Sequence record: NC_028997.1
DNA: 59,802 nucleotides
Reading direction: 5' to 3' (one strand)
Source of the DNA: Enterobacteria phage JenP2
Below are positions 43,717 through 55,584 of the stretch, piece by piece. The notes beneath the pieces are model-generated. The model saw nothing but the letters and a program-made list of their open reading frames with translations, made no database searches and had not been told where the DNA came from. Positions within the stretch are counted from its first letter, which is position 1; each line of letters starts with the position of its first letter. The position numbers and the translations under genes are program-made.

Positions 43717-43992
43717 TCATACCGTACATTTTTGCCAATGGCCCATAGAAAATGACAGCGAAGTGCAGACAACTTCCAACCCGTCATCATCACGCACCAC
43801 GGGCAAAGCTAGGCCGCTGCGGGCGTTATGTACAGTGCGGTGTACTCTATACACAGAGTTATGCGTAAAGCGCCGCGTGTTCGCGTTTGTGCAGCGTAAT
43901 AACGCTCCGATATGTACAAGTGGAGCAGGCATAGTGAAGCCAATCATTAGATCCTTCTCTTTCTTATTAGGCTGGCGTACAGTTACATTCAT
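43717..43992 (-). CDS. hypothetical protein
   Basis: 91-aa ORF; ATGA start/stop overlap with the upstream small HTH ORF. Confidence 0.4.
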   Translation of the reverse strand: MNVTVRQPNKKEKDLMIGFTMPAPLVHIGALLRCTNANTRRFTHNSVYRVHRTVHNARSGLALPVVRDDDGLEVVCTSLSFSMGHWQKCTV

Positions 43993-44168
43993 TGTGTCGT
44001 CCCCTCATTTAAAGATTCCAGACGCTCACCTAACAAAATGAGCGATTTAATTTGATGCGGTTTCTTACCAAGATGTTCAGCAATGTGGTTATAAGTAAAA
44101 CCTTTCTCCCGCATACGATAAGCAGTAATAGCGGCATTGCGATTGCGGATATCGGTTTTCTTACTCAT
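43989..44168 (-). CDS. small helix-turn-helix DNA-binding protein (not in the ORF track, 59 aa)
   Basis: Hand translation MSKKTDIRNRNAAITAYRMREKGFTYNHIAEHLGKKPHQIKSLILLGERLESLNEGTTQ; HTH-like GFTYNHIAEHLGKKPHQIK; ATGA overlaps with both neighbours; AAGGAG upstream. Confidence 0.45.
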   Translation of the reverse strand: MSKKTDIRNRNAAITAYRMREKGFTYNHIAEHLGKKPHQIKSLILLGERLESLNEGTTQ

Positions 44169-51680: not shown

Positions 51681-52473
51681 TCGGTGAAAAAATGTACAAT
51701 TTATAAAGATTCAGCAATATACGAAAACGGCGAAGCGAAGTGTATGAAAAATAAGGGAAATTTTTGAGGATTGGGAGGTTTATAGTGATTTATATTATTT
51801 ATAAAGGGGTCTCGTGGGGTCGTCAGTAGACAACTCAAAAACAAAAAATCTTTATAAAATTTATATAAATACACACATATACACATTTTTACCTTATTTT
51901 TCATGCACTTACCTCCTTTCATTTCGTATATTAAGCGGCAATATACGAGCAATATAAGAAATATTTGTTGCGCAACAACGAGGCGCTCACAAGCTCGCGC
52001 ACGCGCATAATGCGGGCACGCGGTCTAACACAAAAGAAAATTGAATTGCAAGCGATTTTTGCTGAGGTAACTCTCGAAGCGAAAGCGATTTGCGAGTATG
52101 AATTTTTGTAGCCCGAAAACGATTCTATTTTATGGTATAAATGTCGGATTTTTCGGTGAAAGCGAGCTTTTCGGTGAGGTTGGGTGGCTGGGATCGGTGT
52201 AACTGGTAGCCCATAAAGCGAAAATAGCCGCGAAAACGGGGCGCGCAGCGCGATTAAATGGTTGGATCAGTGTAAGGGTGGCGGTGAGGGGCGAAAATGC
52301 CGCAAAATCGCTTACAGGGATGCAGGGAGTGGATCGCTATAAGGGCGTATAAGGCGATTAAATTGGAGTCTATGGTAAGGTATGGAAGAGGATTTAGGCT
52401 CTTAGAGCGCGAATGCCGGAGCTATGGGTGAGGAATATGTGGTCAGCAGGGTAGCGCGGGAGGTGGTGCGGGT

Positions 52474-52512
52474 ACAAAAACGAAAGCGCCCCGTTGGACT
52501 TCAACAGGGCGC
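52474..52512 (-). terminator. rho-independent terminator (minus strand)
   Basis: GCGCCCCGTTG-gactt-CAACAGGGCGC stem (one mismatch) followed on the minus strand by TTTCGTTTTTGT; lies downstream of the gene ending at 52536. Confidence 0.6.
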
Positions 52513-52535
52513 GGATTGTATAATGCAGTTAGAAG

Positions 52536-52784
52536 TTATTTACTAGTTAATAATACCGCCCAGGTATTATCTGGAAGCGTACCAACTCCAAGTATCTTAA
52601 ACTGAAGTGACTTGTTCTGCATGTTGTAGTTGTCGAGTAACTCCTGGGCAGCGGCAGCGGCGTTCGCTTCACCGTTCAGGTTGTAGTCGTTTGCAGTTAT
52701 TGCACACATACCGAGGCCGACTGCTTTGAAGCGCATACCTTTGGATTGAGTCGGTGCCAGTGCTTTGATATGGATAGCGTTCAT
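52536..52784 (-). CDS. hypothetical small protein, family A paralog 1
   Basis: 82 aa; paralogous to 53315..53560 (shared AAAxEL, K(I/E)(L/V)GxG(T/E)LPD motifs). Confidence 0.45.
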   Translation of the reverse strand: MNAIHIKALAPTQSKGMRFKAVGLGMCAITANDYNLNGEANAAAAAQELLDNYNMQNKSLQFKILGVGTLPDNTWAVLLTSK

Positions 52785-52813
52785 ATTATTTATCTCCGTT
52801 ACAATTTTAGACG

Positions 52814-53071
52814 TTAGCAGTTTTTTAACAGGTTGATGAAGCCCGCCAGCGTGGACGCTGTTGCAACCAGGCGGCCCATAGTATGCAGTTCCGCGTGAAC
52901 TGTACCGTCGTCGAATACAGTTAAATAAACGTTAAGACCATTGCAACGGACGCGATATTTGCGCGCGTTATTACCGAAAGTTTCTAGCTCTGCGGTAATA
53001 GTCGCAAGATTAGCTATACGTTTGCCGATAATACGGCGAGTGATAGTGGACTGGTTTAATACTGTAGACAT
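52814..53071 (-). CDS. hypothetical small protein, family B paralog 1
   Basis: 85 aa; paralogous to 54386..54691 (ITRRIIGKRIANL vs ITKRIIGKRLHQL; DDGTVHAE...GRLV vs EDGTVSSY...GRPV). Confidence 0.45.
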   Translation of the reverse strand: MSTVLNQSTITRRIIGKRIANLATITAELETFGNNARKYRVRCNGLNVYLTVFDDGTVHAELHTMGRLVATASTLAGFINLLKNC

Positions 53072-53139
53072 AATAATTTCCTCAGTTAACTATGCGAAGT
53101 GCATATTATTGCCCACGGTTACTATGGGCAATGTATATG

Positions 53140-53304
53140 TCACTCAGCGGTCACATATTCTAACGCTTCTGATAGTGTAGCGAAGTGACCATCACTCATC
53201 AGATTAATAGCGTACTCAAGTTGATCTCGGGTCAGGTTGCGAAACTTGTTGCGGATGTGATAGCAACGACCGCGATAAATAACCTGGAAATAGTTGCGTT
53301 CCAT
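53140..53304 (-). CDS. hypothetical small protein
   Basis: About 54 aa from the Met of MERNYF; the track N-terminal extension would overlap the upstream gene. Confidence 0.3.
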   Translation of the reverse strand: MERNYFQVIYRGRCYHIRNKFRNLTRDQLEYAINLMSDGHFATLSEALEYVTAE

Positions 53305-53314
53305 AATTATCCCC

Positions 53315-53560
53315 TTATGCAACGATGAACGCGTAACCGCTTTGATCTGGAAGCTCGCCGCCGTCAACAATCTCAAACTCAACGCCCGCTTTATCGTTGA
53401 ACTTTTTGATAAGCTCTTCCGCTGCGGCGCGGTGGTTGCCGTAAACGCCCAGATCGTCACGCCATGTGATAGTCAAGGAGCCGTTCCAGCCTGTTGCTTT
53501 TACGCGCGGGTTACGGGTAGCAGTCGGGTTCATGAATTTTGTGATGATAGCTTGAGCCAT
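53315..53560 (-). CDS. hypothetical small protein, family A paralog 2
   Basis: 81 aa; see 52536..52784. Confidence 0.45.
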   Translation of the reverse strand: MAQAIITKFMNPTATRNPRVKATGWNGSLTITWRDDLGVYGNHRAAAEELIKKFNDKAGVEFEIVDGGELPDQSGYAFIVA

Positions 53561-53565
53561 GATAA

Positions 53566-53751
53566 TTACTCCGGTAAAATTACAGTGACGTTAATATTTG
53601 CAATGCGAGCACACTCGCGGAAACCTTTTACATAAGCATCCATTTCATCATAGGATGCGAAAGTTGCGTCCGGGACTGGTCCGTTGTTAATATTCACGCA
53701 ATATTCGTGATCGTCCAGGTCCACCCAACAATACAGAACTATAGTTTCCAT
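53566..53751 (-). CDS. hypothetical small protein
   Basis: About 62 aa from the Met of METIVLY; GGAGGG SD lies inside the upstream micro-ORF. Confidence 0.4.
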   Translation of the reverse strand: METIVLYCWVDLDDHEYCVNINNGPVPDATFASYDEMDAYVKGFRECARIANINVTVILPE

Positions 53752-53752
53752 A

Positions 53753-53827
53753 TTATTTGCCCTCCGTATAGTACAGACCTGCAACTATTGGAGCTCCGAA
53801 CACTAAGAAAGCTAATAAGTAGAACAT
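53753..53827 (-). CDS. 24-aa hydrophobic micro-protein (not in the ORF track)
   Basis: Hand translation MFYLLAFLVFGAPIVAGLYYTEGK; GGAGG SD 8 nt upstream; stop overlaps the next start (TAATATG). Coordinates derived by arithmetic from track frames. Confidence 0.4.
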   Translation of the reverse strand: MFYLLAFLVFGAPIVAGLYYTEGK

Positions 53828-53829
53828 AA

Positions 53830-54324
53830 TTAGTTGCCTCCTTTATTGTTGAGCCCGTTGAATTTACGCCATGCGTAGAATTCAATCGTTGCATTATTAA
53901 TATTCCAACCATTAGCTTTCGCAAGGTCACGGACGTTACCAATAGTTGGCACACCATCAGGTAACATATTATCCAGGGCATTCCAAACGTCTGCGCATTT
54001 ACCTTTAATCGGGCGACGAACCCCGTTGCGCGTTTCGCTGCGCGTTTTGCTCTTGGCGAGAGCGACCGGAGCTTGTTGTGTGGTCACTTCCACGACAGTC
54101 GCTTTATCAGCTTCGACCAGATCGTTAGCCGCCTTATTAACCGCGCCTTCGCTGAACCAGTAGCGGCCACCGTCTTCCAGCGGCTCCTGGTGAATGAAAC
54201 TGTTAGCGGTCGCAGTGTCCACATCCAGAACCTTTTTCAAGGCACGGCGAGCGTTAGACATGTTGGTGAAAAAGCGAGCATCTTTCGCTACGCGAGTGAT
54301 AGTTGCCATTGTAAATATCTCCAT
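53830..54324 (-). CDS. hypothetical protein
   Basis: 164-aa ORF (the true start may be the Met of MATITRV at about 54309). Confidence 0.45.
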   Translation of the reverse strand: MEIFTMATITRVAKDARFFTNMSNARRALKKVLDVDTATANSFIHQEPLEDGGRYWFSEGAVNKAANDLVEADKATVVEVTTQQAPVALAKSKTRSETRNGVRRPIKGKCADVWNALDNMLPDGVPTIGNVRDLAKANGWNINNATIEFYAWRKFNGLNNKGGN

Positions 54325-54385
54325 GTTGTTCTAGCGGATTGCTAGTGGGAGCCCACTGTGACAATGGGCAACCATTAGCACGCTA

Positions 54386-54691
54386 TTATTGTTGAATAGC
54401 TTTAGCTATCATTGTGATGAAGCAGAACACAGACCAAAGGCTATTCGCTTGGCATACTGGGCGACCATACATTACGCTATAAGAGCTGACAGTGCCGTCC
54501 TCGTTAATGCGAATGTATAACGCGGTGCTGGAATATTTTTCGTTGCCCGGGAGCATTACCAGATACTCGTCGAAATCCCAATCCCCGTCGACCTTTTCCG
54601 CTGTAAGGCCCAGCTGATGTAGGCGCTTGCCGATAATGCGCTTAGTAATCTGAGATTGGGACATGGAACGCGGTAAGTAGATAATGGACAT
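54386..54691 (-). CDS. hypothetical small protein, family B paralog 2
   Basis: About 101 aa from the Met of MSIIYLPRS; see 52814..53071. Confidence 0.45.
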   Translation of the reverse strand: MSIIYLPRSMSQSQITKRIIGKRLHQLGLTAEKVDGDWDFDEYLVMLPGNEKYSSTALYIRINEDGTVSSYSVMYGRPVCQANSLWSVFCFITMIAKAIQQ

Positions 54692-54880
54692 AATGCAATC
54701 TCCCTTCGGGTGAGGCGGGCGCGGAACCCGTGTCCCGCTTAAAAACCCCCTTAACCCTACGCAGTTATAGTATGACAACGGGGTATCAGATGCAACTATT
54801 ATCTGCATTATTTTAGAACTTTTTTAGTTGTGTTTCATAATAATAACATCCGGGACTACACGGTAGATGGTGTGCCGGAA

Positions 54881-54945
54881 ATACCAGGTAGCGCGAGCGT
54901 GTCGAACATACCAGGTAACAGCACACGCCGAACATACCAGGTAGC
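54881..54945. repeat. three tandem 26-27 bp direct repeats (iteron-like)
   Basis: Core ATACCAGGTA(G/A)C at ~54881, ~54908 and ~54934 within a ~490-bp non-coding region between divergent gene blocks. Confidence 0.6.
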
Positions 54946-55296
54946 ACATACATAGACAGCATATAGTGGGCAGGTGGATAGTAACAGATGTAATTATACT
55001 GGACTGTACAGTATAGTCATGTAATAGATAGCATACTAATCAAATAAAAAATAATAACGCGTGTAATAATAAACAACGTTACAGTAGAGCGCGCAACAGT
55101 CACATGACGTAACAATCACCTCACTGACGATCACGGGACGTTATAGTAACGCCGCGGGGCGGCTCTTAGATCTCTGCCAAGGATTCATCGTTTGTAGATT
55201 ATCTCGTCGCTAGACACTTTATATCCTCACCTCACCTGCCCTATATTGTTCGTATAAAGTTAATTCTGTATGTAAATACTCGAGAGGAGATCTGTT

Positions 55297-55584
55297 ATGT
55301 TCGTTCTGGCTTTCAGTAGTGCAATATGGCTAGGTATCAACTGGATCCTTGCAATTATATTAGGTCTTGTGATTTGGTATGTGCCGTTTATGCGTTACGC
55401 TGTTATCATTTCGCTTGCATATTTAGTTGTTAAACATTTCTTCGTATGGTGTGTATGCAACCCACAAGCTGCAAACATCAAACGTAAGAAAGCGAACTTC
55501 TTTACTGTGCTTATTTTAGGTTCACTGATTGTGTACGCATGGTTGCTCGGTGCGCAGAACTTAGGTTGGTTCACGTTGCCTTAA
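55297..55584 (+). CDS. small integral membrane protein
   Basis: 95 aa; three predicted hydrophobic helices; GAGAGGAGA SD; first gene of the plus-strand right-arm block. Confidence 0.5.
   Translation: MFVLAFSSAIWLGINWILAIILGLVIWYVPFMRYAVIISLAYLVVKHFFVWCVCNPQAANIKRKKANFFTVLILGSLIVYAWLLGAQNLGWFTLP

Follow-up and report, generated by a model that had tools for sequence, protein, structure and literature searches.

A conserved 24-codon micro-ORF in Nonagvirus phages, predicted to encode a single-helix inner-membrane peptide

Very small hydrophobic peptides of the bacterial inner membrane can have strong physiological effects, by depolarisation or by inhibition of a membrane machine, and the type I toxins TisB (29 aa), Ibs (19 aa) and ShoB (26 aa) are examples of these. 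SidA of Caulobacter, also of 29 aa, is a division inhibitor that binds FtsW. In bacteriophages, small gene families are reportedly the subject of a large-scale prediction by Fremin et al. in 2022 (Cell Rep 39:110984, cited in PMC11364881). Single-TM proteins of 27–33 aa, such as YohP and YkgR, are inserted by Escherichia coli post-translationally via SRP and then SecYEG or YidC (PMC7549839), and YohP alters the membrane potential and the physiology of the cell without catalytic activity (10.1101/2025.05.06.652344). KdpF (29 aa, with KdpABC) and AcrZ (49 aa, with AcrB) are single helices that act by lateral binding to large membrane complexes (PMC12648545).

The micro-protein described here, encoded by a 24-codon micro-ORF in Enterobacteria phage JenP2, belongs to a well-known kind, namely the small hydrophobic phage and bacterial proteins that are overlooked by gene callers. 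With lengths of 22–26 aa, the members of its family fall within the size and segment range of the small single-TM class (less than ~50 aa, with one uncharged hydrophobic segment of bilayer length). The ORF, purifying selection on its amino acids, its linkage to the upstream gene and a pattern of conservation that is both hydrophobic and periodic are established here. Overall, it is probable (roughly 0.6) that the micro-ORF is a genuine gene for a single-pass inner-membrane peptide that would act by helix–helix packing.

Location and conservation of the micro-ORF

The original prediction placed an unannotated 24-codon ORF at positions 53753–53827 of the window (the whole 59,802 nt stretch that was analysed, sequence record NC_028997.1). 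This ORF was borne out as ATG-MFYLLAFLVFGAPIVAGLYYTEGK-TAA on the minus strand, with the start ATG at 53827–53825, 24 sense codons, and the stop TAA at 53755–53753. Neither an in-frame stop nor a frameshift was present on re-inspection, and a nearby base that had been taken as ambiguous is not so in the exact sequence. The Shine-Dalgarno (SD) sequence GGAGG (53837..53841, minus strand) is located 9 nt, rather than the predicted 8 nt, 5' of the ATG (CAACTAATT), within the K-G-G-N codons that end the upstream gene, whose TAA (53832–53830) is 2 nt from the ATG. At the other end, the TAA and the next start had been read as overlapping in TAATATG, but they share no base and are tightly juxtaposed, 1 nt apart, with a single T between the TAA and the ATG (53751–53749). 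The SD of the downstream gene does lie inside the micro-ORF as predicted, as GGAGGG (53760..53765, minus strand) in codons 21–23. The context on the coding strand is AAA-GGA-GGC-AAC-TAA-tt-ATG...ACG-GAG-GGC-AAA-TAA-t-ATG-GAA.

The SD position is occupied in relatives, at an equal distance, by GGGGG, GGTGG, GAGGG or GAAGG. The strong GGAGG is found only in the window and in one IMG/VR contig, and most relatives have a weaker sequence (GGGGG, GGTGG or GAAGG). First-order Markov simulations, with the composition taken from the window, gave ~2.5 ATG-ORFs of 15–59 aa with GGAGG 5–10 nt upstream per window by chance, and 0.04 per window when at least 20 aa and a GRAVY of at least 1.2 were required. 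At these rates the observation in a single sequence is suggestive and not decisive, and it is the comparative data that decide whether the micro-ORF is real. No second copy (paralogue) of the micro-ORF was found elsewhere in the window; in a crude scan for ORFs in gaps, the locus itself is masked by overlapping paper ORFs.

The region of the window containing the micro-ORF was found to be 89–96% identical to the corresponding region of the Nonagvirus (9g-like, Queuovirinae) phages 9g, JenK1, JenP1, ESCO3, HdK1, HdSG1, BRET, PD328, SE1, SP8, Bas19 and Bas20. The micro-ORF was intact in every relative fetched, in a set of 60 loci (12 from GenBank and the window, then loci from IMG/VR, metagenomes and assemblies) that includes 37 unique nucleotide versions and 16 peptides, and at least 18 of the nucleotide versions encode an identical 24-mer. 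In the 12 GenBank loci and the window, 13 nucleotide sites are variable, 11 of them at the third codon position, and the amino acid changes are V9I and E22G. At the first, second and third codon positions, the variable sites of this Nonagvirus-type set number 1, 1 and 11 (binomial P = 2e-4), and synonymous sites account for 11 of the 13 (P = 5e-6 versus a neutral synonymous fraction of 0.23). The pN/pS of the micro-ORF (Nei-Gojobori) is 0.016 at a pS of 0.27; in the same loci, the downstream 61-aa gene has a value of 0.30 and the final 50 codons of the upstream gene one of 0.14. With all 37 distinct nucleotide versions intact and 11 of 13 variable sites synonymous, the description of the micro-ORF as genuine is strongly supported.

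Two readings in which the peptide has no role bear on this result. If the micro-ORF were untranslated, its conservation would have to come from an RNA or DNA element or from a gene that overlaps it in a different frame or on the opposite strand, and two paper ORFs do overlap the region, one of 80 aa on the minus strand (53739..53981) and one of 40 aa on the plus strand (53707..53829). However, three-base periodicity is seen in the frame of the micro-ORF only. In the two remaining sense frames and in two of the antisense frames, pN/pS was 2–12 or undefined, and the antisense frame with coinciding wobble positions (pN/pS 0.11) includes two stop codons, indicating that neither paper ORF is coding. 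As no Rfam match was found in 52400–55300 at E ≤ 1 and the local RNA fold at the micro-ORF was not significant (z = -0.56), an RNA element does not explain the conservation. The micro-ORF might alternatively be a pure translational-coupling spacer that passes ribosomes on from the 159-aa gene to its successor and specifies a functionless peptide, which would suit the tight juxtaposition of stop and start codons on both sides in the window, an arrangement common in phage operons. A spacer would not keep amino acids, yet the many nucleotide versions converge on one peptide, the pN/pS is below that of both flanking genes, and five residues are invariant over ~50% divergence. The substitution pattern contradicts both readings and largely refutes the spacer, and either is considered highly improbable. 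Together with the frame comparison, it indicates that strong purifying selection acts on the peptide sequence itself, and the micro-ORF is very probably a real gene whose peptide sequence matters.

Ten Nonagvirus records have a 78-nt "gap" between the hypothetical genes for the 159-aa and 61-aa proteins at this point. The micro-ORF is thus unannotated in 10 of the 12 distinct GenBank relatives, as had been claimed, but not in Bas19 and Bas20, where a 24-aa hypothetical protein is recorded. The identical peptide is encoded by bas19_0075 of phage ChristophMerian/Bas19 (QXV77188.1) and bas20_0075 of phage FritzHoffmann/Bas20 (QXV79340.1), and an exact look-up in public protein collections found it under these two accessions only. 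As the sequence and the two flanking genes are the same, this is the same gene, and these records differ from the window only in carrying the annotation "hypothetical protein". The BASEL collection, to which this annotation belongs, was annotated automatically (MultiPhATE) with manual refinement, and the publication makes no comment on this gene (PMC8594841). Literature searches by the bas19_0075 and bas20_0075 locus tags and accessions found nothing, and no transcriptomic, proteomic or ribosome-profiling data on Nonagvirus were found in the literature. The existence of the peptide is therefore already on record, as an uncommented hypothetical protein, and the present analysis adds a well-supported gene to the Nonagvirus genomes, one that 10 of the 12 GenBank relatives omit.

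Searches with three to four of the peptide variants gave no match in Pfam, PHROG or NCBIfam, even at E ≤ 10 in Pfam and NCBIfam, apart from sub-cut-off profile matches to PSII_Ycf12 and DUF6722 (E 0.06–0.12) that are due to hydrophobic composition. The only match in a PDB sequence search with the peptide had E = 7. The peptide defines a small protein family outside Pfam, PHROGs and NCBIfam.

Linkage to the upstream gene and genetic context

The upstream early gene (53830..54309, minus strand; phrog_17772), annotated in relatives as encoding 159 aa, accompanies the micro-ORF in every lineage, and its product looks to be a soluble, HTH-like protein. In the window the ORF opens at ATG 54324 (MEIFTMATIT...), but in all relatives the annotated start lies five codons further on (MATIT..., 159 aa), and residue 6 is also where the PHROG profile of this gene begins. 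The downstream 61-aa gene (53566..53751, minus strand; phrog_5461, unknown function) begins with the ATG 1 nt 3' of the micro-ORF TAA, and in divergent lineages its position is taken by other genes.

A tblastn search using the peptide detected weak matches (50% identity) in three phages of the Queuovirinae, namely vB_Kpn2-P2 and K9PH25C2 of Klebsiella and Ec1-ASingh of Escherichia. These were located directly 3' of a homologue of the upstream gene, where the ORF encodes MMYYIAAFIVFAGPLFAGLYFSK and its start overlaps the upstream stop as ATGA. Ten more divergent variants, including MYYVAAFIVFAGPLVAGFYFSK, MFYLLAVLIFAGPIVAGLYYTEGK, MVFYVLAFLVFGVPVLAGILSKSK, MLYLCAVIVFAGPLVAGFYFTSNKG, MFYFAAFLVFGGPLLVGFYFSK and MLYYILASIVFFGPVVAGLYYTEEK, were recovered from metagenomic and assembly contigs in which the upstream protein is 57–70% identical, giving a family length of 22–26 aa. 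Recognisable homologues thus persist where the neighbouring protein is only 57–70% identical, and the micro-ORF was present in all fetched loci that include sequence beyond such an upstream homologue. The junctions at its start are TAAnnATG, ATGA, TAATG or TAAATG, or else a spacer of 18–22 nt that supplies the micro-ORF with a GAAGG at the usual distance. The gene downstream of the micro-ORF changes between lineages and the upstream gene is constant. As for translational coupling, that with the upstream gene is found in most lineages, and that with the downstream gene is lineage-specific.

The micro-ORF was absent next to distant homologues of the upstream gene (26–40% identity) in Pantoea phage Vid5, Providencia phages PSTCR4 and PSTCR7, Seuratvirus VogelGryff and one metagenome locus. 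A scan independent of the neighbouring gene was also performed, in which a degenerate DNA pattern derived from the peptide was applied to IMG/VR and to one genome per GTDB species. In IMG/VR this returned the same nine contigs and one chance match (inside a 1290-aa ORF), and in GTDB one 3.5-kb phage-like contig and 15 chance matches; the family was found nowhere else in these collections, and tblastn with the divergent variants revealed no further phage lineages. As distant homologues lack the micro-ORF and the downstream gene is variable, this is a lineage-restricted phage gene that is tied to the 159-aa gene. The possibility that the micro-ORF is a C-terminal extension of the upstream gene, reached by programmed frameshift or readthrough, was considered and is excluded because the frame offset varies (+2, -1, +1, 0) and stops intervene in three of the loci.

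Several individual loci merit description. A mosaic allele, MFYLLAFLVFGIPVLSGIFLVNK, was found in a metagenomic or assembly contig (accession number CYGL01000303.1; coordinates 335–406), with its first 11 codons of the Nonagvirus type and the remainder, together with the downstream junction (TAATTTATTGAGGTAAnTAT-ATG), matching the type represented by MVFYVLAFLVFGVPVLAGILSKSK. This indicates a recombination breakpoint inside the 24-codon gene, with the ORF and the invariant residues still kept. The identical 24-aa peptide was also encoded at 1496–1567 of a 3487-bp contig (accession number NZ_MPDK01000056.1) assigned to Sulfoacidibacillus thermotolerans Y002, which almost certainly represents contamination of an unrelated genome assembly by a Nonagvirus-like coliphage. 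In Pantoea phage Vid5 (GenBank accession number MG948468.1; coordinates 53475–54972), the upstream-gene homologue (tblastn E = 5e-22) is an ATG-ORF at 468–1010 of this segment. The Vid5 record annotates a GTG-ORF on the opposite strand (429–989, Vid5_gp80), with gp78–82 all on that strand, and this stretch may have been annotated on the wrong strand.

The micro-ORF is part of a leftward operon of small genes, all in PHROGs of unknown function, which is probably early. A promoter-like site, ATGACT-16-TATAAT (10/12; 54993..55020, minus strand), is present upstream of this operon, and a terminator-like hairpin of 11 bp, 8 of them GC, with a T-run (52486..52512, minus strand) is present at its end; both are consensus matches only. 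Between 52536 and 54808 (minus strand) the operon includes two paralogous pairs, one in phrog_13865 (54386–54808 and 52814–53071) and the other in phrog_3199 (53315–53560 and 52536–52784), suggesting a duplicated two-gene unit. Three to four direct repeats of ~19 nt (GCCGnAnATACCAGGTAGC), spaced at 25–27 nt, were found at 54849–54945, where they separate the promoter-like site from the first gene of the operon; a partial copy in inverted orientation is present at 55292–55303. This repeat set may be an operator or iteron-like array.

The divergent rightward operon is headed by a 95-aa ORF (55297–55584, plus strand) that encodes a very hydrophobic product (MFVLAFSSAIWLGINWILAIILGLVIWYVPF...), which from its sequence looks like a small multi-span membrane protein and is a candidate for a phage-encoded partner of the micro-protein. 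Elsewhere in the window, a 59-aa ORF (43989–44168, minus strand) preceded by GGAG (MSKKTDIRNRNAAITAYRMREKGFTYNHIAEHLGKKPHQIKSLILLGERLESLNEGTTQ) was seen where longer ORFs leave a gap; it falls narrowly short of the 60-aa threshold of the ORF track, and its product looks like a small HTH protein.

Features of the peptide and possible modes of action

In all 16 variants residues 1–20 are uncharged, with a GRAVY of 1.2–1.9, and the hydrophobic stretch has Tyr or Phe at both ends. It is followed by a polar tail of 2–6 residues that contains Lys in every variant and is the most variable part of the peptide (TEGK, SK, SKSSE, TSNKG, SKSK, VNK). When the variants were anchored on their single Pro, residues Y3, A6, F10, P13 and G17 were invariant in addition to the start, across ~50% overall divergence; these were found in the first 11 variants and held in five further distinct variants recovered later. 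Small residues (G, A or S) predominate at positions 11, 12 and 16. The invariant residues are spaced 3-4-3-4 and fall within an 80-degree arc of the α-helical wheel, an arrangement equalled by 39 of the 11,628 choices of five positions from residues 2–20 (P = 0.0034, a post hoc value obtained with few independent lineages). A conserved face with this spacing, together with the small residues, is characteristic of transmembrane helices that pack on another helix through one side. The best 19-residue segment scored about -0.5 to +2.8 kcal/mol in a crude sum of the Hessa biological hydrophobicity scale with no position weighting, and because of the Pro, Gly and Tyr residues membrane insertion is plausible but not assured. 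The predicted single-helix membrane micro-protein is therefore supported, at the level of sequence, by 20 uncharged residues, the GRAVY values, the aromatic ends, the Lys tail and the one-face invariance.

For the micro-protein, we infer translation, membrane insertion, topology and a mode of action as follows. Ribosomes would reach the micro-ORF through its own SD and, in most lineages, also by handover from the 159-aa gene, the stop of which is 0–2 nt from the micro-ORF start or overlaps it. The product would be a peptide of 22–26 residues consisting essentially of one hydrophobic α-helix (residues 1–20) with aromatic ends and a short polar Lys tail, and would insert in the host inner membrane as a single span. 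The Lys tail is most likely cytoplasmic, the sole pointer being the Lys in every C-terminal tail. The peptide would have no catalytic role; instead the Y3-A6-F10-P13-G17 face, with its small residues and a Pro/Gly kink, would pack against another transmembrane helix, provided either by a larger membrane protein of the host or the phage, as with KdpF and AcrZ, or by further copies of the peptide. The HTH-like, soluble-looking upstream protein offers no obvious functional link to the peptide.

A more specific role can be suggested only tentatively. The peptide might be a phage effector that binds, inhibits or re-programmes one host inner-membrane machine via the invariant face, or it might be an obligatory membrane partner of the upstream HTH-like protein. 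As an effector, it could conceivably be directed at a component on which competing phages rely for DNA entry, as in superinfection exclusion, or at a component of the divisome or a cell-wall flippase. If the effector or partner role is true, the peptide would rank with the smallest phage effectors that have a defined target, and a specific membrane target would make it a minimal natural inhibitor or modulator. If there is no specific target, its gene would join the numerous small, hydrophobic genes of phages that have no known role.

The same gene and helix might alternatively act with no specific partner, by self-association or lipid perturbation that leads to partial depolarisation of the inner membrane or a change in its fluidity. 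Host physiology would then be shut down or competitors excluded, in the manner of YohP (27 aa), TisB and Ibs. The size and composition of the peptide fit this class, and the small-residue face (A6, P13, G17) could equally serve homo-oligomerisation; production of YohP partly dissipates the membrane potential and induces (p)ppGpp (bioRxiv 10.1101/2025.05.06.652344). However, the helix has no polar or charged residue to line a pore, there is no antisense or sRNA partner, Rfam match or similarity to type I toxins in Pfam or NCBIfam, and uncontrolled depolarisation from a probably early operon would be expected to harm phage production too. The absence of a polar residue from the helix and the one-sided conservation argue mildly against non-specific perturbation, which is considered unlikely. 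The peptide could also be imagined to act in cis, as a leader or arrest peptide in the manner of TnaC, ErmCL or SecM, with the nascent chain stalling the ribosome at the end of the ORF and controlling access to the downstream SD. Selection on the amino acid sequence is compatible with this, as is the position of the downstream SD in codons 21–23 in Nonagvirus, where the next start is 1 nt after the stop, and TnaC has the same length of 24 aa. In arrest, though, the residues nearest the peptidyl-transferase centre are the C-terminal ones, which here are the most variable, and the peptide is kept across lineages that have different downstream genes and junctions. Residues 3, 6, 10, 13 and 17 are invariant with helical periodicity, and the composition is that of a transmembrane segment. 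Given the variable C-terminal tail and the non-constant downstream gene, this class was rejected as very unlikely. Helix–helix packing by a single-pass peptide remains the preferred reading, and one conserved helical face on a 24-residue membrane peptide makes a concrete hypothesis that is cheap to pursue, as Bas19 and Bas20 are public and grow on E. coli K-12.

Comparison with known small proteins

The micro-ORF is of the same general kind as the families reportedly predicted by Fremin et al., as a conserved phage ORF of less than 50 codons that is missed by standard callers and predicted to be transmembrane. In another genus of Queuovirinae, gp42 of Pseudomonas phage NP1 (57 aa, MIRFLLVLAAIILVLYLIFSEVF..., at 748–921 of the fetched locus) has an N-terminal TM helix and is encoded directly 3' of the upstream-gene homologue. 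However, gp42 is more than twice as long as the peptide, has a soluble tail and shares no detectable sequence similarity, making it a positional analogue only. In phage Seurat, an unannotated 37-aa ORF with its own GGAGGG (826–939 of the fetched locus) directly follows a distant homologue of the upstream gene, and is unlike the micro-protein in sequence. Both NP1 gp42 and the Seurat ORF may be positional analogues of the micro-ORF.

Holins are typically at least ~60 aa with a charged C-terminal domain. A holin or lysis protein was rejected for the micro-ORF, as it is located in an operon of small genes of unknown function rather than in a lysis cassette and the peptide is 24 aa with the tail TEGK. 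The toxin of a type I toxin-antitoxin system (TisB, Ibs, ShoB, Hok or Ldr) was likewise rejected, on the results for Rfam (52400–55300, E ≤ 1), the RNA fold, Pfam and NCBIfam. From TisB, Ibs and ShoB, and also from SidA, the peptide differs in having no antisense RNA partner or family match and in its context, which is a phage operon.

No profile match to the YohP, KdpF or AcrZ families was found in Pfam, NCBIfam or PHROG. YohP (27 aa) and YkgR (33 aa) resemble the peptide in their similar length and in consisting of approximately one hydrophobic helix and a short tail. However, they are host-encoded and stress-induced and have no sequence similarity to it, and in the phage peptide a Pro/Gly motif in the middle of the helix and a conserved face suggest specific packing. 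KdpF is encoded in the operon of its partner, whereas the only constant neighbour of the peptide is the gene for the soluble-looking HTH-like protein. Though not homologous to it, KdpF and AcrZ exemplify the mode of action that is proposed for the peptide, by analogy, from its one-sided conservation.
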